This document shows positions 16,672 to 64,000 of a stretch of DNA of 64,000 bases, piece after piece. Below the pieces are notes generated by a model. It had not been told where the DNA came from and made no database searches. It saw nothing but the letters and a program-made list of their open reading frames with translations. A program made the translations under genes and the position numbers. The stretch comes from an uncultured Bacilli bacterium (GTDB lineage: Bacteria; Bacillota_I; Bacilli_A; RF39; UBA660): NCBI GenBank assembly GCA_947629265.1, contig CANRCZ010000003.1:8359-72358 (forward strand), in the 5' to 3' direction. The number at the start of each line of letters is the position of its first letter. Position 1 is the first letter of the stretch.

Positions 16672-17559
16672 CTATAACTTTTCGATTTCTTCTATACTTA
16701 AGCCTGTGTTTCTAGATATAACGTCAAAAGGAATACCATCAGTTTTTAGATTTTTAGCGATTTCGTTGGCTTTTTTCAATTCTCCTTGATTTATTCCTTG
16801 TTCTAAGCCATCTTCTCGAGCTTCGATGATTAGAGTGTTTCTTTCCATTTCTTCACGACTATAATCTGTGTATAGTTCCACAATGTCTTTATCCCTACTC
16901 CTTTTCTCTATCTCTTCTACTAGTTTTCCTTTTGTTTCTTTTGACATTAGATCATCACCTATCGCTTCCTCTATTTCTTCTAAGCTTGTTGCAGTTAATA
17001 ATTTGCACAATCTCGCTTTCTTTTCTTCATCTTTAGTATAACACATTTTTATCCCTCTTACCATATCTACGGAGATTATTTCGATATTTTCACTTAATAT
17101 TTTTCCACTTTCGTTTCTTAAATAATATCTTGAACATATCTTTTCTTGTCCACAATCAAAATTATTTAAACCTATTTGAATGGTCTTATTAATCTGACTA
17201 TAGTTATTATCTCCTCTTTCTAATTGTCTAGAGTGTACATTACATAAGTATACTAAATTTCTCTCTTGTATTCCTCTAGAACTATTATTATTTAATTCGA
17301 TATTTATCATATCGCCATCGTAGTCTAACAATAAGTCTACTTGTTCTCTTCTTTCTTTTTTGTTATATAACTCCAATTCCCTAGTTTTGATTTTCAATCT
17401 TCCTGTTATTTTTTCTAGAGGAATATCTGTTATAATCGATATTAAACTTTCTAGTATGTCGACATTCTTTTCCCTATTTAAAATATCAGTAAATACGAAA
17501 TCAAATGTCATTGGCAGTAACTTTAATTCTTTTTTATTTATGGTATTAATATTTTTCAT
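16672..17559 (-). CDS. Rpn-family recombination-promoting nuclease / putative transposase (PD-(D/E)XK, YhgA-like)
   Basis: 295-aa ORF. Has the N-terminal conserved region of Rpn/transposase_31 proteins and a C-terminal repeat-like tail (EQGINQGELKK...). Confidence 0.7.
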   Translation of the reverse strand: MKNINTINKKELKLLPMTFDFVFTDILNREKNVDILESLISIITDIPLEKITGRLKIKTRELELYNKKERREQVDLLLDYDGDMINIELNNNSSRGIQERNLVYLCNVHSRQLERGDNNYSQINKTIQIGLNNFDCGQEKICSRYYLRNESGKILSENIEIISVDMVRGIKMCYTKDEEKKARLCKLLTATSLEEIEEAIGDDLMSKETKGKLVEEIEKRSRDKDIVELYTDYSREEMERNTLIIEAREDGLEQGINQGELKKANEIAKNLKTDGIPFDVISRNTGLSIEEIEKL

Positions 17560-17889: not shown

Positions 17890-18762
17890 TTATTGGGGTG
17901 GTAATATTAAATTCCATGCATCTTGTCCAAATTCATCGTGTACTTTGCCTGTAGTTTGAATACCAGATTTTAGAACAATGACGGGCCGGAACCCGAGTGG
18001 GTGATAGCTGTAGCAGTAGGAAGAACCACCTTTCGAAGTCGCGTAAAGCAAGCAAGAGTCACCGTTACCGAGATCAGTTCCAGTATAGGTAGTAGCAAAC
18101 CAATACTCTGATCCAGTTGTTCGTAATGAATTACTAGCAGGAGTAATAGCGTCAAACTCAGCTTTAGTCATAGCATATGCATGCTCTGCATATGTTGAAT
18201 TTAAATATTGGTCTTTGGCACGTGCATCTAAGTTAGCTATACTATCACTTGCCTTAGGTCCATGATAGTAACATTCAGGTTGGCCGGCGTGGACTAGATA
18301 AACTTTTCCACTTTGTTTTTTTAATACACGCCAACCTTTTAACGTTGTTTTTAAATTTTCGCTCGAACACCATTCTACACTTGAATTTTTACTCTGTCCA
18401 CTTTTATAACCACCAAATCCTACTTGTGCTGGAATATCAGCTGATGAACTCCATGTACCTGCATTATACGCTACATAATCCCCTACTTGTGCTTTTTCTG
18501 ATAAATCATATGGAACTTTTTTCTCTAAATCAGATACTTGCTTCTTTAAATCATCAATTTGTACTAATGATTTATTAATTACGTCATCTAAAGCAGCTTT
18601 TACAGTTGTAGTTTTTCCATCTTTTCCAGTATAGCTCACTCCTGCACTAGTATATTCATCTAGTCCTCTACTTACACCATTCATTAATGCTACTCCTATT
18701 AATAGTCCAAAAGCAAAGACAAATCTTTTTTTATCAAAAATTCTTGTTAATATTTTTTTCAT
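17890..18762 (-). CDS. Secreted/surface protein, paralogue 1 of a four-member family in this window (N-terminal signal/TM, coiled-coil, Cys-containing globular domain)
   Basis: 290-aa ORF. Motifs shared with 54715.., 55710.. and 63792..: DGVSY, AL D[DE]LIN[KT]SL, GDYV.Y.AG.W, FGGYKA.TSKN.SV, GWRVLKK, YLVHAGQPECYYH, GFRPV[IV]VLKSG, DEFGQ.AW[KN]L. Confidence 0.8.
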   Translation of the reverse strand: MKKILTRIFDKKRFVFAFGLLIGVALMNGVSRGLDEYTSAGVSYTGKDGKTTTVKAALDDVINKSLVQIDDLKKQVSDLEKKVPYDLSEKAQVGDYVAYNAGTWSSSADIPAQVGFGGYKSGQSKNSSVEWCSSENLKTTLKGWRVLKKQSGKVYLVHAGQPECYYHGPKASDSIANLDARAKDQYLNSTYAEHAYAMTKAEFDAITPASNSLRTTGSEYWFATTYTGTDLGNGDSCLLYATSKGGSSYCYSYHPLGFRPVIVLKSGIQTTGKVHDEFGQDAWNLILPPQ

Positions 18763-45607: not shown

Positions 45608-46957
45608 TCAGTTAATGGTCTTAATCAATTTTTTTATTTCAATTTCTAGGTTAGGATCTTTCGCTATCTGTTTTTTAATCTTTTCAACAGCATGCATAAC
45701 GGTCGTATGGGTTTTTCCACCAAATTCGATACCTATTTTAGCGAGTGGTTGATCGAATTCTAGTCTACATATGTACATAGCTATTTGTCTAGGGGTATTG
45801 ATATTCGCTAATCTTTTAGTACCTCTTATTTCTTCAAGGGTTATATTATAATGTTCGGCTACAACTTGTTGGACTTGTTGAATTTTATTTTTAGAATGAA
45901 GATTGTCTTTAAATTCTTCTTTTAAAGCTTCCATCGCGATATCTAAAGTAATAATACCGGAGTTCATCATCGTTGCATAAGCGACAACTCTCGTGATCGT
46001 ACCCTCTAGTTTTCTTATGTCACTAGTACAGTTACTAGCGATATATTCTTTAACATTTTGTGGAAAATTACCGTTTATCATGTGACCCGCTACTTTATTG
46101 TCGATAATATCCATCCTTAAATTAAATTCTGGTGGTAGAATATCGATGCTTAAGCCCCATGTAAACCTAGTTCTAAGTCTTTCTTCTAGTAATTTTAAGT
46201 CTTCTGGCGATCTATCTGATGATATTATTATTTGTTTATTATTGTCGTGTAGGACATTAAAGGTATTGAAAAATTCTTGTTGTGTCTGATTAGCGCTACC
46301 TAAGTACTGAATATCATCGATAATAAGAACGTCAATATCTCGGTATTTCTTTTTGAAAAATTCGACATTATCAAAGTTATTATTAGCTTTTTTACGACTA
46401 ATACCGACAAAATCATCAACAAATTGTTCACAAGTAACATATAGAACTTTTTTCTTGCTGTTATTTACAATATAGTTACCAATAGCATGCATCAGGTGGG
46501 TTTTACCAAGTCCGCTCGAACTATACATAAATAAAGGATTATACATTGTACCTGGGTGTTCAGCGACTGCTAAAGCTGTAAGTTTCGCTAATCTGTTGCT
46601 CTCTCCTACGATGAAATTATCGAATGTATATTTAGAATTTAAGTTCGATTCAAATGCTAAAGTTGATGGAACACCGATATCATCAGTATCAATTTCAATA
46701 TTTTTTTCGATTTCTTCTGGTAATAGATATTCAAATTTAAAGTTAGAACCCGCGATTTCATTAAATATTTCTACTATTAATGAGTTATAGTTTTCTTTTA
46801 AATTCTTTTTAGTGACATGATAAGGTACGATGACCTTGGCGGTATCACCACTTAAATCATATAGTTCGGTATTAGAAAACCATGTTTCAAATGCCATCGG
46901 AGATAATTCTGGTTTGATTTTTTCTAAAAATGCATTCCATAGTTTTATCTTATCCAC
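45608..46957 (-). CDS. dnaA: Chromosomal replication initiator DnaA (GTG start)
   Basis: 449-aa ORF with an AAA+ domain (GLGKTHLMHAIGN) and a C-terminal DnaA-box-binding HTH. Confidence 0.95.
   Translation of the reverse strand: MDKIKLWNAFLEKIKPELSPMAFETWFSNTELYDLSGDTAKVIVPYHVTKKNLKENYNSLIVEIFNEIAGSNFKFEYLLPEEIEKNIEIDTDDIGVPSTLAFESNLNSKYTFDNFIVGESNRLAKLTALAVAEHPGTMYNPLFMYSSSGLGKTHLMHAIGNYIVNNSKKKVLYVTCEQFVDDFVGISRKKANNNFDNVEFFKKKYRDIDVLIIDDIQYLGSANQTQQEFFNTFNVLHDNNKQIIISSDRSPEDLKLLEERLRTRFTWGLSIDILPPEFNLRMDIIDNKVAGHMINGNFPQNVKEYIASNCTSDIRKLEGTITRVVAYATMMNSGIITLDIAMEALKEEFKDNLHSKNKIQQVQQVVAEHYNITLEEIRGTKRLANINTPRQIAMYICRLEFDQPLAKIGIEFGGKTHTTVMHAVEKIKKQIAKDPNLEIEIKKLIKTIN
46949..46957 (+). promoter_or_regulatory. 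Perfect consensus DnaA box TTATCCACA overlapping the dnaA start codon
   Basis: The sequence reads cttatccacaacc; the last three bases (CAC) are the reverse complement of the dnaA GTG start. Confidence 0.5.
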
Positions 46958-54568: not shown

Positions 54569-54714
54569 AATCCACCTCTAGTAATATTATCTAATATAAA
54601 TGTCATTAATTTATAGTAATATTTGTACAATTATTATTTAATTTTTTATAAAAATTGTAAAAATAATACAACTTTTCATATAATTATGGTATAATATTGT
54701 AAAAATAGAGGGAG

Positions 54715-55593
54715 ATGATTATGAAAATGTTTAATTATTTGAAAAAATATTACAAGTTAGTTATATCATTTGTTTTAGGTGTAATGATAACTACTATGGT
54801 AGGTTATGGAGTTGGTTATGCTGTTGATAATATACCTAGTGATGGTGTTAGTTATGTAAAGAATAATAAAACTATTACTGTTAAACAAGCTTTAGATGAG
54901 TTAATAAATACGTCACTAACTAGAATTGATGATTTGGAAGCAAAGGCTAAAATTTATAAGTATGCTTATTTATATGATGCCGTTAATGTTGGAGATTATG
55001 TAGATTATGATGCTGGTAATTGGACAGCTGACGTTCCAATACCAAGTGTAGTAGGAGAATTTGGTGGATATAAAGCTAATACAAGTAAAAATGCTAGTGT
55101 GGTATGTTGGGAGCCAAGAGGTACAACAGACTTGAAAGGCTGGCGTGTACTTAAAAAAGTAAATAACCAAGTCTACCTAGTCCACGCTGGCCAACCTGAG
55201 TGTCATTATCACAAAAATGGATATAATGATACAAGTATCGAAGCTTTAAATAAACGAGCAAATGAATATAAGAATGAATATGCGGTGTCCGCTCATGCTA
55301 TGAATTATCAAGAAGCATATGATATTGATAAAACTGAATTAGATGTTGCTACCAATAATGATTTACGAAAAACTGGAGCATTTTATTATCTGGCAACACC
55401 TTACCAAACTGAAGATGATAAAAATTGGTTGTATGGTGTTAGGCAAGATGGTGCTATAACTTATATAGGTTATGCAACTGGTCTAGCGACTGGCTTTCGT
55501 CCTGTTGTAGTTTTAAAAGCAGGTATTTTAACGACAGGAAAAGGAACAGATGAATTTGGACAACCTGCATGGAAACTAGTTGAAATGAAATAA
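54715..55593 (+). CDS. Secreted/surface protein, paralogue 2 (intact ATG start, no poly-G)
   Basis: 292-aa ORF sharing the family motifs. RBS gagggag. A TGgTATAAT extended -10 sits at ~54680. Confidence 0.8.
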   Translation: MIMKMFNYLKKYYKLVISFVLGVMITTMVGYGVGYAVDNIPSDGVSYVKNNKTITVKQALDELINTSLTRIDDLEAKAKIYKYAYLYDAVNVGDYVDYDAGNWTADVPIPSVVGEFGGYKANTSKNASVVCWEPRGTTDLKGWRVLKKVNNQVYLVHAGQPECHYHKNGYNDTSIEALNKRANEYKNEYAVSAHAMNYQEAYDIDKTELDVATNNDLRKTGAFYYLATPYQTEDDKNWLYGVRQDGAITYIGYATGLATGFRPVVVLKAGILTTGKGTDEFGQPAWKLVEMK

Positions 55594-55709
55594 TGTAGTT
55601 GAGCTGATAATTCAACTTTTTTTCTTTCACCAAAATAAAACAGTATTGAAAATATAATATAAATTTAGTATAATTGATATGTAAAATAAAATAGGAGTAG
55701 ACAAGAAAA

Positions 55710-56514
55710 ATGAAAGAGAAAATAAAGCTTGGGGGGGGGTTATCTACTAATAATTTTGGTACTATTAGTAGTAACTAATGGTATTACGTATGGAGCTAGT
55801 CAGTTAACTAGCGATGGTGTGAGCTACCAGAAAAATGGTGAAACTATAACAGTGACGAAAGCGCTAGACGATTTAATCAATACGTCACTAACTAAAATTG
55901 ATGAATTAGAGGCAAAAGCTAAAATTTATAGATATGCTGAATTGGTAGACGTTGTTGAAATTGGAGATTATGTAAATTATGATGCTGGTAAATGGTCTAC
56001 GTCGAAAACAAAGCCAGAAAGTCAGGGGCAGTTCGGTGGATATAATGCTAATACTAGCAAAAATGCCAGTGTTGCATGTTACGAAGAAACAGCTCCAAAA
56101 TATCAAGGATGGAGAGTTTTGTCAAAAGATACAAATTCTAGAACTGTAACTATCATTCATGCTGGTCAACCCGAATGTTATTATCATGCTAGTGGATATA
56201 GCGATGCAAGTGTAGAACTTTTAAATAAAGAAGCAGAACAATATATGAATACATATGCAAAGTCAGCACGTTCAATTATTGGAGATGACATAAATTCTTT
56301 GGGTGGTAATGATTTAAGAAATATCGGATCAGAATATTGGTTGGCGTCTAAGAATGGTCAATACCATTTATATATGGTTCGTGCATCAGGTGGAGAAGCA
56401 TGGTCTCATACTGCTGCAATGGGTTTCCGTCCAGTAATTGTCTTAAAATCTGAAACATTAACCAATGGTAAAATAAAAGATCAATTTAATAATGATGCTT
56501 GGAAACTAATTTAA
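55710..56514 (+). CDS. Secreted/surface protein, paralogue 3. Putatively phase-variable and currently out of frame: ATG...poly-G(9) in frame 1, the rest of the ORF in frame 2.
   Basis: ATG at 55710 with RBS taggag. MKEKIKLGGG then runs into a stop. The 261-aa ORF 55729-56514 is in the +1 frame; G8 instead of G9 would fuse the two. Confidence 0.7.
55731..55739 (+). repeat. Homopolymeric G(9) tract in the 5' coding region; candidate slipped-strand phase-variation switch
   Basis: Counted directly: gctt-GGGGGGGGG-ttatc. Confidence 0.9.
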
Positions 56515-56610
56515 CTATATATATAAAAGATTAATCACTAACAAAATTAATCTTTTTTTATTATTTCCCAAAAATTGATTGCATTATTTTCAAAAATATA
56601 GTATCATTGT

Positions 56611-58176
56611 ATGTATAAGAATAAGAAAGGGTGTACTGGTATGAATATAGAAAGAGAAGTACAAATTTTAAATATAAATGATATTTTGCCTAATAGATTT
56701 CAACCAAGAATTACCTTTGATGAAAAAGCTATCATGGAATTAGCGGAATCAATCAAAACTCATGGTGTAATTCAACCAATTGTCGTAAGAAAAGTAGCAG
56801 ATAAATATGAAATTATCGCTGGTGAAAGAAGATATAAAGCTAGTATCATCGCAGGTAAAACAACCATTCCAGCTATTGTAACTGATTTAGATGATAAAGA
56901 TAGTGCCGAGGTAGCGTTAATTGAAAACGTTCAAAGACAAGATTTAACACCTATCGAAGAAGCTATATCTTATAAAAAAATCTTAGATATGGGATATCTA
57001 AATCAATCAGAACTAGCAACAAAATTAGGCAAAACACAATCAACAATCGCTAATAAACTACGTCTTTTAAATTTAACAGACGAGGTTCAAGAAGCATTAT
57101 TAAAAGAAAAAATATCTGAAAGACACGCCCGTTCTTTATTAAAATTGGATAAATCTAAACAAAATGAAATGCTTAATCGTATTATAACTGAACGAATGAC
57201 AGTTAGAAAAACCGATGAAGAAATTGCAAAAATAACTAACAACGTCGAAATGTTAGATTTCGGCAAAAAGGAGGATGTGTCTATGAATAATCAAATAAAT
57301 AGTTCTAATATTCCAACTTCACCAATAATTGAACCAAATCCTATGAATAACGTGCCAAACGTACCAAATGTTTCTCAAGACTTAAATGTTGATAATATGG
57401 TACCAGAACCAAATATCGAACCATTCAATATCGATACTTTATCTACTAATGATAATCTTCAAACAGTACCAACATCAAATAGCTATTTAGATGAAATACC
57501 AACAACAGAAACTATCAATCCAGGATTTATGGATATTAATAAAATCGAAGCTGAAGCTACTAATATCAATCCTACTATGGGTAATAGCGGTTCATTCATT
57601 AATAATGAACCAAACCAAAACCTAGATAGCATAATTAATCAACCAACATATACAACACCAATTGATCAACCAAATGATAATGGTCAACCAGCAGGTGGAA
57701 GATTTTTCTCTAATCAAATAGAAGAACCTAATCAACCTCAAGATAATAATTTAGATAATATGTTTGATAGTAACAACATATTTACTCAAGATATGAATTT
57801 TAATCAACCACAATTTGATCAACCATATCAAAATCAAACCAATAACGCTAACAACAATGCTGGCTTTAACCCAGCTTTAGCAAGTTTTAACTTAGGTAGT
57901 CAACCACAATTTGATGCTCCACAACCAGAACCAGCACCACAAAATATAAATACAAGTGTTGTTGAACTTGGTGGAACAGGATTTATGAACGAAGAACCAA
58001 TCTTACAACCATTAATGAACAATAACGAACCAGTTGTTAGACATGATATGAAAGAAGCTATATCAATAATTAGAAGCTGTTCAAAACAAATTGAAAACTT
58101 AGGATTTAAGTTAGACGTTGAAGAGATAGATTTTGAAAATTTCTATCAAGCAACATTCAAAATCGAAAAACCATAA
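56611..58176 (+). CDS. ParB/Noc-family paralogue: ParB N-domain, HTH, then a ~300-aa N/Q/P-rich low-complexity region and a short C-terminal domain. The likely start is the ATG at 56641 after RBS agaaaggg.
   Basis: 521-aa ORF. GERRYKAS arginine patch, HTH (QSELATKLGKTQSTIANKL), then ...NNQINSSNIPTSPIIEPNPMNNVPNVPNVSQ...QPQFDQPYQNQTNNANNNAGFNPA... Confidence 0.75.
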   Translation: MYKNKKGCTGMNIEREVQILNINDILPNRFQPRITFDEKAIMELAESIKTHGVIQPIVVRKVADKYEIIAGERRYKASIIAGKTTIPAIVTDLDDKDSAEVALIENVQRQDLTPIEEAISYKKILDMGYLNQSELATKLGKTQSTIANKLRLLNLTDEVQEALLKEKISERHARSLLKLDKSKQNEMLNRIITERMTVRKTDEEIAKITNNVEMLDFGKKEDVSMNNQINSSNIPTSPIIEPNPMNNVPNVPNVSQDLNVDNMVPEPNIEPFNIDTLSTNDNLQTVPTSNSYLDEIPTTETINPGFMDINKIEAEATNINPTMGNSGSFINNEPNQNLDSIINQPTYTTPIDQPNDNGQPAGGRFFSNQIEEPNQPQDNNLDNMFDSNNIFTQDMNFNQPQFDQPYQNQTNNANNNAGFNPALASFNLGSQPQFDAPQPEPAPQNINTSVVELGGTGFMNEEPILQPLMNNNEPVVRHDMKEAISIIRSCSKQIENLGFKLDVEEIDFENFYQATFKIEKP

Positions 58177-59205: not shown

Positions 59206-59351
59206 ATTTTGTAACTCCTCCTTTCAAATTAATCATAATATAATTGATTAATAAATTACACGACATAAAATGAGAATGACATTTTTAATAGATTTTATCT
59301 TAAAAATTTATTTAATTATAACATTATTCATAAAAAAACATCAATTGATGT

Positions 59352-63720: not shown

Positions 63721-63791
63721 TTAATATGTTGAAAATATGATATAAATATTATATAATTAGGATGTAAAATAAAGAAAAGGAGACAAGAGAA

Positions 63792-64000
63792 ATGAAAGAA
63801 AAAATAAGGCTTGGGGGGGGGTTATTTACTAATAATTTTAATACTATTAGTGGTAACTAATGGTATAACGTATGGAGCTAGTCAGTTGACTAGCGATGGT
63901 GTGAGCTACCAGAAACAAGATGGAAATTTAACAACGGTGAAAAGTGCGTTGGATGAGTTGATAACCAAATCATCTAAAGTTAATGATTTGGAGAAAAAAG
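63792..64000 (+). CDS. Secreted/surface protein, paralogue 4, 5' part. Carries the same ATG...poly-G(9) arrangement and is out of frame, so putatively phase-OFF. Continues beyond the window.
   Basis: RBS aaaggag. ATG at 63792: MKEKIRLGGG then a stop. The +1 frame encodes GGGYLLIILILLVVTNGITYGASQLTSDGVSYQKQDGNLTTVKSALDELI..., which matches the family. Confidence 0.7.
63813..63821 (+). repeat. Homopolymeric G(9) tract; second candidate phase-variation switch
   Basis: Counted directly: ggctt-GGGGGGGGG-ttatt. Confidence 0.9.

Follow-up and report, generated by a model that had tools for sequence, protein, structure and literature searches.

A homopolymer tract between the start codon and the body of the gene

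The gene described here starts at position 55710 of a 64,000-nucleotide stretch of DNA (hereafter the window) from an uncultured Bacilli bacterium (GenBank assembly GCA_947629265.1, contig CANRCZ010000003.1, positions 8,359 to 72,358 of the forward strand). Its ATG (55710-55712) is followed by AAA GAG AAA ATA AAG CTT (55713-55730) and then by a run of nine G's (G9, 55731-55739). The sequence upstream of the ATG ends in ...AATAGGAGTAGACAAGAAAA, and downstream of the run it continues TTA TCT. An earlier note on this DNA had proposed that the run puts a surface protein out of frame and serves as a phase-variation switch. The annotated elements of the gene, all on the plus strand, are as follows.

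55646..55674, plus strand: sigma-70-type promoter, TTGAAA-17 nt-TATAAT, matching 11 of 12 consensus positions (consensus scan)
55693..55697, plus strand: Shine-Dalgarno sequence (SD) AGGAG, 12 nt upstream of the ATG at 55710 (sequence reading)
55710..55730, plus strand: start codon and basic seven-codon leader MKEKIKL (sequence reading)
55731..55739, plus strand: poly-G tract of nine G's starting at codon 8, the frame-setting element (sequence and shuffles)
55740..55778, plus strand: out-of-frame tail read from the ATG at G9, LSTNNFGTISSN then TAA; the OFF product is a 22-aa peptide
55729..56514, plus strand: body frame with signal/anchor segment GGGYLLIILVLLVVTNGITYGA, helical stalk and C-type-lectin-like head
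56526..56559, plus strand: AT-rich hairpin AAAGATTAAT / ATTAATCTTT followed by a T run, a probable terminator (sequence reading)

The frames are as the earlier note had read them. From the ATG, the G9 sequence translates as MKEKIKLGGG LSTNNFGTISSN (the whole read being MKEKIKLGGGLSTNNFGTISSN); after the three GGG codons there are 12 sense codons, and the thirteenth is a stop (TAA, 55776-55778). The long open reading frame (ORF), 261 aa when counted from an in-frame TTG at 55729 that overlaps the first G of the tract, occupies 55729-56514 and lies in the +1 frame relative to the ATG. With eight G's the sequence becomes ATG...CTT GGG GGG GGT TAT CTA..., which gives MKEKIKLGGGYLLIILVLLVV (also written MKEKIKLGGGYLLIILVLLVVTNG...). 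Thus, G8 fuses the ATG to the 261-codon body and G10 does not, just as had been claimed; to this we can add that G11 fuses them as well, whereas G7 and G9 leave them in different frames.

The tract is not a product of base composition. The window contains 28.7% G+C, and its only runs of six or more G's or C's are two G9 tracts, compared with a mean of 0.02 G9 runs in 100 dinucleotide-preserving shuffles of the same sequence. The G9 tract is therefore non-random, far beyond what chance would give. The second tract (63813-63821) occupies the identical position in another paralogue, where it follows an ATG at 63792 and the leader MKEKIRL and likewise puts the body out of frame.

A 13-bp hairpin at 55757-55786 lies within the signal-peptide coding region and spans the OFF-frame stop codon. 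As for the hairpin that follows the gene (56526-56559), it would make the gene monocistronic if it is indeed a terminator. It was missed by the consensus terminator scan, which demands at least three G-C pairs, and we infer the terminator from the sequence reading.

The tract is part of a 5′ cassette shared between paralogues

Four paralogues of one protein are encoded in the window, and only two of them, the gene at 55710 (paralogue 3) and paralogue 4, carry the tract. The remaining copies are listed below.

17890..18762, minus strand: paralogue 1, tract-free, MKKILTRIFDKKRF...
54715..55593, plus strand: paralogue 2, tract-free, with an ordinary basic N-terminus and transmembrane segment and the same stalk and head
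63729..64000, plus strand: second cassette copy and start of paralogue 4, cut by the window end

Paralogue 2 shares 49-50% amino acid identity with the gene at 55710. In paralogue 4 the promoter lies at 63729-63757 and the SD (GGAG) at 63779-63782; the ATG at 63792, MKEKIRL and G9 (63813-63821) follow, with the body in the +1 frame.

In an alignment of the 5′ regions of all tract-bearing copies, the tract turned out to belong to a sharply bounded cassette of about 180 bp that consists of the promoter, SD, ATG, seven-codon leader, tract and signal/anchor segment. Its 5′ edge is the start of the promoter and its 3′ limit is ...TSDGVSY. The promoter is kept in all paralogous cassettes, and the sequence upstream of the -35 element is unrelated among the copies. 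At the nucleotide level, paralogues are 87-96% identical within the cassette and 60-67% identical within the bodies. The SD of the second cassette in the window is separated from its ATG by a 9-nt spacer. In neither leader variant is there a comparable SD 5-10 nt upstream of the TTG (55729 in the first cassette). The two variants, MKEKIKL and MKEKIRL, differ by a synonymous GAG/GAA change and by AAG/AGG, which exchanges K for R.

A contig from a near-identical strain (L021), which matches the window at 99.75% identity across the rest of the locus, differs sharply at paralogue 2. There (L021 1-177; window equivalent 54600-54837), the same body is preceded by a wholly different promoter and N-terminus, MKLINKLLSQKKF..., which is also found in the proteins P0014 and P0021. 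This indicates that the 5′ cassettes of the family are exchanged by recombination.

Coding constraint begins directly after the tract

Comparison of the cassette copies shows which frame is translated. Downstream of the tract, variable columns occur only at codon positions 1 and 3 of the body frame. When differing codons were counted pairwise, the body frame gave 44 synonymous and 36 non-synonymous changes, as against 0 and 68 in the ATG frame, and all 36 non-synonymous body-frame changes are of the L/I/V/F type or D-G/E-S. Judged by these substitutions, coding constraint acts on the body frame from its first codon downstream of the tract, and the ATG frame is free of it. It follows from this pattern that ribosomes must already be in the body frame when they leave the tract. 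The internal GTG (MVTNG) and TTG (MTSDG) starts chosen by several gene callers are excluded by the constraint that acts on the body frame directly downstream of the tract. The ratio of non-synonymous to synonymous substitution rates (dN/dS) between orthologues of the gene at 55710 was uninformative, since these have 0-1 differences.

The anatomy of the signal segment bears on the same question. In all tract-free paralogues, 3-6 K or R residues stand before the hydrophobic segment, and in the tract genes the ATG leader is the only source of such basic residues. Both lines of evidence, anatomical and comparative, identify the ATG as the real start and the G8 phase as the full-length configuration.

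Tract length in other copies

Ten further cassette copies could be read as DNA, which together with the two in the window makes 12. The tract is G9 in 11 of them; the exception is a prepilin-type copy, L022, with G7. The G9 copies outside the window include the following.

Locus at 55710: L004, L020, L021 (99.75-99.94% identical to the window), G9
Orthologues of paralogue 4: L017, L018, G9
Other paralogues: L016, L019, L023, G9

All of these are consensus sequences of low-coverage metagenomes and report the majority allele only.

The G7 copy comes from another study and lies downstream of recA (L022, 2070-2180). It has an SD, then ATG AGA AGA AAA ATA GTA CAT and the G7 run; its body, YLSNFSINKTKG followed by FTLIELL..., is in another frame, and G8 would fuse it to the leader MRRKIVH. 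It shares with the G9 cassettes the seven-codon basic leader, the GGG-Y junction and the in-frame length, but the offset is -1 instead of +1. As G8 is the in-frame length in both cases, tract lengths appear to differ on both sides of a single ON length.

Pilin-type relatives fall into several classes. P0043, P0182, P0090 and P0323 are in the G9 phase; P0055, P0056, P0316 and P0191 are called from inside or after FTLIELL and imply neither the G8 nor the G9 phase. Two relatives with an interrupted tract can be read continuously from a seven-residue leader, namely P0058 (MITKCKN-GKG-YFLENTNKKG before FTLIELL) and P0126 (MKKQTYV-SGG-TLQKSKG before FTLIELL). Ordinary prepilin leaders in the pilin-type group have only 4-8 residues; the pilin-lectin protein seen in P0043 and P0182 also occurs with a plain MKKKG leader, in P0320.

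For paralogues from metagenome-assembled genomes at NCBI, the tract had to be deduced from called N-termini only, and P0034, P0020, P0005 and paralogue 2 have no exact-protein record. The start chosen by a gene caller proved to be a poor proxy for tract length and was rejected as such: L019 and paralogue 4 are G9 and are nevertheless called as MVTNG and MTSDG. Informative called N-termini are MGGG and in-frame leaders only.

Wider searches added little. A protein-profile scan of GTDB species genomes returned 3 distant loci, none with a G run of at least 6 or with the conserved block of the cassette; the source genomes are apparently not species representatives in GTDB. A DNA-pattern scan of JGI metagenomes for the signal-peptide block gave 11 matches, all by chance and in unrelated sequence, and the leader-plus-tract pattern had no match in viral contigs.

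The predicted product

In an AlphaFold model (pLDDT 85.7; above 95 in the head), the product begins with a helix at its N-terminus, continues as a long helical stalk and bears a globular head. The head is structurally similar to DUF6273 (PF19789) and the C-type-lectin-like fold. Pfam searches with paralogues 2 and 3 found no family at E <= 1; precomputed PF19789 matches exist for paralogue 4 (P0034) and P0182, and the match of L018 is weak. The IgA peptidase of Thomasclavelia ramosa has DUF6273 as its N-terminal domain (PMC12402451). At E <= 1e-3, the head-domain family comprises 1,432 representatives, and close relatives of the product insert Big_2 domains or have a prepilin N-terminus in place of the anchor. 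Other C-type-lectin-fold binding domains with which the head can be compared are the C-terminal domain of Legionella Lcl and the target proteins of diversity-generating retroelements (DGRs). It is reasonable to regard the product as a likely exported ligand-binding protein, which would be exposed on the cell surface and bind its ligand there. Such a protein is a plausible object of phase variation.

In a genome of 29% G+C, about 40 tract genes have kept a body that is an uninterrupted ORF of 245-420 codons, which means that these bodies are maintained by selection. An alignment of 35 short-form family members contains 36 invariant residues. Matched head-domain stretches also occur, 8-11 per protein, in the giant proteins P0172, P0173, P0181 and P0266 (1,940-5,654 aa).

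Genomic setting

The window covers the chromosomal origin region. To the left of about 47 kb, dnaA (45608-46957, minus strand), dnaN, recF, gyrB and gyrA are encoded on the minus strand; to the right of the origin, mnmE, mnmG, rsmG, parB, uvrB and lgt are on the plus strand. The cumulative GC skew has its minimum at 44-48 kb. Both tract genes point in the direction of replication, and their G runs lie on the leading strand. ORFs are intact under translation table 11, that is, under the standard code.

Several other features of the region are worth recording. An ORF resembling transposases of the PD-(D/E)XK family (16672-17559, minus strand) adjoins the tract-free paralogue 1, and in L016 (157-1499) an IS3-type transposase pair (HTH_Tnp_2, rve) immediately precedes a tract-bearing paralogue. 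In the ParB/Noc-like protein encoded at 56611-58176, which measures about 511-521 aa according to the start codon chosen, the C-terminal half is of low complexity, rich in Asn, Gln and Pro, and unusually long. An intergenic 9-nt indel (ATATAATTG) at 59238-59246 separates the window from the otherwise near-identical L020.

A proposed slippage switch and its alternatives

On balance, we lean towards the view that the G9 tract is an ON/OFF phase switch that operates by replication slippage and whose majority state is OFF. Transcription would start at the near-consensus promoter, and ribosomes would initiate at the SD-served ATG (55710), read seven codons and arrive at the G run. With G9 they would stop after 22 codons and no surface protein would be made. 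The loss of one G during replication (G8), or a change to G11, would join the basic leader MKEKIKL to GGGYLLIILVLLVV... and so provide an N-terminal signal/anchor that could export the helical stalk with its C-type-lectin-like binding head. If G9 is the resting majority, each tract-bearing paralogue would be ON in a minority of cells, which would produce a heterogeneous surface or adhesin repertoire. The tract would have to change length at a useful frequency, and G8 cells would presumably exist.

We favour a switch in the DNA because this is the established behaviour of such tracts, because G7 and G9 flank one ON length, and because a consensus reports only the majority allele. Moreover, a proven example has the same layout and is also OFF in its consensus. 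In the sortase-pilus switch of Bifidobacterium breve UCC2003 (bbr_0113a/b, bbr_1889a/b), a start ORF of about 8 codons is followed by a G tract and by a body in another frame (PMC9187656). The reference sequence is OFF and needs the loss of one G; ON cells make up 3-6.5% in vitro and 13-30% in the mouse gut (PMC9187656).

The interpretation given in the earlier note is partly supported. Its slipped-strand contingency design has gained a conserved promoter, SD and ATG, the constraint on the body frame, a tract that recurs across the family, the G7 copy and the interrupted-tract relatives, while switching was not observed and no ON allele was found. The note had also held that an invariant G9 without any protein product would mean a fixed pseudogene. 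At the consensus level, G9 is indeed invariant at this locus, but the intact and conserved bodies contradict the conclusion that it is a pseudogene. Nor does such invariance refute the switch, because the data are low-coverage consensus sequences and the proven switch of B. breve is consensus-OFF too.

Several observations nevertheless weigh against a switch. All 11 signal-anchor cassette copies read as DNA are G9, and the gene at 55710 has G9 in all four assemblies of near-identical strains, with no variation in length. As many as 17 database proteins start with MGGG, which corresponds to the G9 phase; in 16 of them the start is MGGGY (NTG GGG GGG GGT TAT), that is, exactly G9, and for P0211 (MGGGA) the phase alone can be deduced. 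Among about 40 tract-bearing genes in the protein collections there is no ON-phase (G8-phase) allele, and the leader is never joined in frame through a G run. Such uniformity is unusual, as classical contingency loci vary freely between strains in both tract length and ON/OFF state. Additionally, the contigs from the European Nucleotide Archive (ENA) have 1.9-4x coverage and come largely from one study, and the G7 copy rests on a single contig of 3.75x.

A uniform G9 would be expected if the DNA were fixed at this length and the frameshift corrected in expression, in the manner of a "pseudo-pseudogene". RNA polymerase (RNAP) slippage would produce G8 or G11 mRNAs and/or ribosomes would slip by +1, and each adhesin would be made at a low, constitutive and tunable level, with no ON/OFF switch, from a whole family of surface-protein and pilin genes that are all permanently out of frame in the DNA and share a selected recoding site. 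The invariance of the signal-anchor cassettes and the absence of an in-frame allele from the collections both fit this reading. So does the length of the tract, since 9 nt is the length of the RNA-DNA hybrid that permits efficient slippage of bacterial RNAP on runs of A or T (PMC5009743); however, efficient programmed slippage of RNAP is documented for A/T and not for G runs, and as a rule it inserts bases, while the present gene requires -1 or +2. On the ribosomal route, tRNA-Gly would slip by +1 on GGG GGG GGG U, which allows perfect re-pairing. The 0-frame A-site codon GGG is rare (28 of 15,334 codons, 3.3% of Gly codons, as compared with 551 GGT), and no Gly codon is used more often than GGU, the codon of the +1 frame. 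A documented case on G runs is the thymidine kinase of herpesvirus, in which compensatory frameshifting occurs at a low level (PMC5009743). The G7 copy, on the other hand, requires the opposite shift, and no single programmed ribosomal mechanism fits both G7 and G9. There is also no conserved stimulator and no correctly spaced SD-like element. The hairpin at 55757-55786 was considered as a stimulator and rejected: its start is 18 nt downstream of the tract, and folding of the whole 149 nt gave no significant structure (z -1.76). The tract region has no match in Rfam, and the window contains no tRNA genes. The same idea was raised for the pilus genes of B. breve before they were tested, and that case was resolved as slippage at the DNA level. 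We consider correction in expression rather unlikely.

G9 might itself be the expressing state, with initiation at TTG 55729 yielding MGGGYLLIIL... and the upstream ATG opening only a short overlapping leader ORF; in a three-state variant, the protein would be made strongly and with the long leader at G8, weakly and in the short form at G9, and not at all at G10 or G7. At G9, by far the commonest phase, TTG and body share one frame, and in the prepilin-type cassette CAT plus the G run would put an ATG in frame at G9. The resulting short forms, such as MGGGYSTLKNKG before FTLIELL (P0043) or MGGGYLSNLSIKKTRS with a transmembrane segment (P0183), would be complete signals. Yet an NTG codon will in most cases arise by chance where a T precedes a G run, neither the TTG nor the tract ATG of L022 has an SD 5-10 nt upstream, and in both cassette types a canonical SD serves the upstream ATG, from which ribosomes would read across the TTG. 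MGGGYLLIILVLLVV would also be devoid of the basic N-region present in every other paralogue, and the interrupted-tract relatives begin at the upstream Met. TTG initiation could yield a weak short form, but as the main mode of expression it seems to us distinctly improbable. Finally, the frameshift might have no function and reflect either a decaying pseudogene or a homopolymer miscalled in assembly. No copy of the gene is in frame, several gene callers cut these genes back to MVTNG... or MTSDG..., and homopolymers are prone to sequencing error, not least in contigs of low coverage. Against this, four ENA samples and the window, five sources in all, yielded the same G9, substitutions directly after the tract are biased towards synonymous changes in the body frame, and conservation extends to the promoter, the SD and the ATG. 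To judge from composition, a random frame of 261 codons would be closed by stops. The roughly 40 out-of-frame tracts with intact bodies, together with the 36 invariant residues, cannot be explained as simple pseudogenes or assembly errors, which leaves a DNA switch or correction at the RNA or ribosome level. An absence of function thus appears highly implausible.

If the slippage switch is real, an uncultured gut bacterium of low G+C content possesses a multigene repertoire of lectin-like surface and pilin-tip proteins, each gated by the same poly-G cassette and mostly OFF. Simple-sequence phase variation would then extend to uncultured gut Bacilli and provide a family-wide route to antigenic or adhesive heterogeneity, and the metagenome consensus would hide the expressing subpopulation. 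There is also a practical side: gene callers mis-start or truncate the tract genes (MGGGY..., MVTNG..., MTSDG...), so the family is systematically mis-annotated. That not one of about 40 genes has an in-frame allele is a testable anomaly that separates a DNA switch from RNA-level recoding. Should recoding prove true, bacteria would for the first time be seen to use poly-G recoding across a whole gene family.

Comparison with known systems

Simple-sequence phase variation is chiefly associated with Gram-negative pathogens and mycoplasmas, and Bifidobacterium provides one proven case. A literature search for phase variation in Erysipelotrichaceae found nothing relevant. The poly-G/C contingency loci of Campylobacter jejuni, Neisseria and Haemophilus have a G tract in the 5′ coding region of genes for surface structures, and the frame is set by its length. 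The cassette described here resembles them in the 5′ position of the tract, in the frame being set by length and in the way in which the tract stands out from the base composition of the genome. It differs in that those loci belong to pathogens and vary in length and state between isolates, whereas our data are metagenome consensus sequences with no variation and no ON allele.

The variable surface protein families of Mycoplasma (M. hyorhinis Vlp, M. bovis Vsp, M. hominis Vaa) place a highly conserved 5′ cassette, from promoter to signal peptide, on divergent bodies and exchange cassettes between genes. Their lipoproteins are controlled by a poly-A tract, which lies within the promoter spacer in Vlp and within the coding region in Vaa, or by site-specific inversion (Vsp). 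Both the homopolymer within the cassette and the exchange of cassettes have their counterparts here, the latter in the swap at paralogue 2 between near-identical strains. Unlike in Mycoplasma, the tract is a poly-G after codon 7, there is no lipobox, and the code is standard. The DGR targets differ in another way: diversity in the present family comes from paralogy and the tract and not from mutagenic retrohoming, and no DGR elements were seen, although none were searched for.

Cases of recoding on homopolymers (the +1 frameshift of prfB, transcriptional slippage in Thermus dnaX and Shigella mxiE, and G-string frameshifting in the thymidine kinase of herpes simplex virus (HSV); PMC5009743) share with our gene a conserved out-of-frame junction at a homopolymer of about 9 nt. 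There is also a rare 0-frame codon, and the shift site is preceded by CTT as it is in prfB. However, the run consists of G's and not of A or T, there is no stop codon in the A site, and a spaced SD-like stimulator is absent.

The B. breve pilus switch is likewise found in a Gram-positive gut commensal, with a short first ORF that encodes the start of the secretion signal and a product that serves surface adhesion. B. breve is a high-G+C actinobacterium whose tracts range from G10 to G12 and differ between strains; here the G+C content is 29% and G9 is uniform. In addition, our tract sits in a cassette common to many paralogues of a C-type-lectin-like stalk protein without LPXTG and to prepilin-type genes. 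Switching has been shown experimentally in B. breve; here it is proposed from the sequence. Frame switches of this kind, with poly-G in the 5′ coding region of genes for surface proteins, are already known. What is new is its host, an uncultured low-G+C lineage of gut Bacilli, the DUF6273-like lectin head carried on a stalk or pilin, and the exchangeable 5′ cassette that these genes share.

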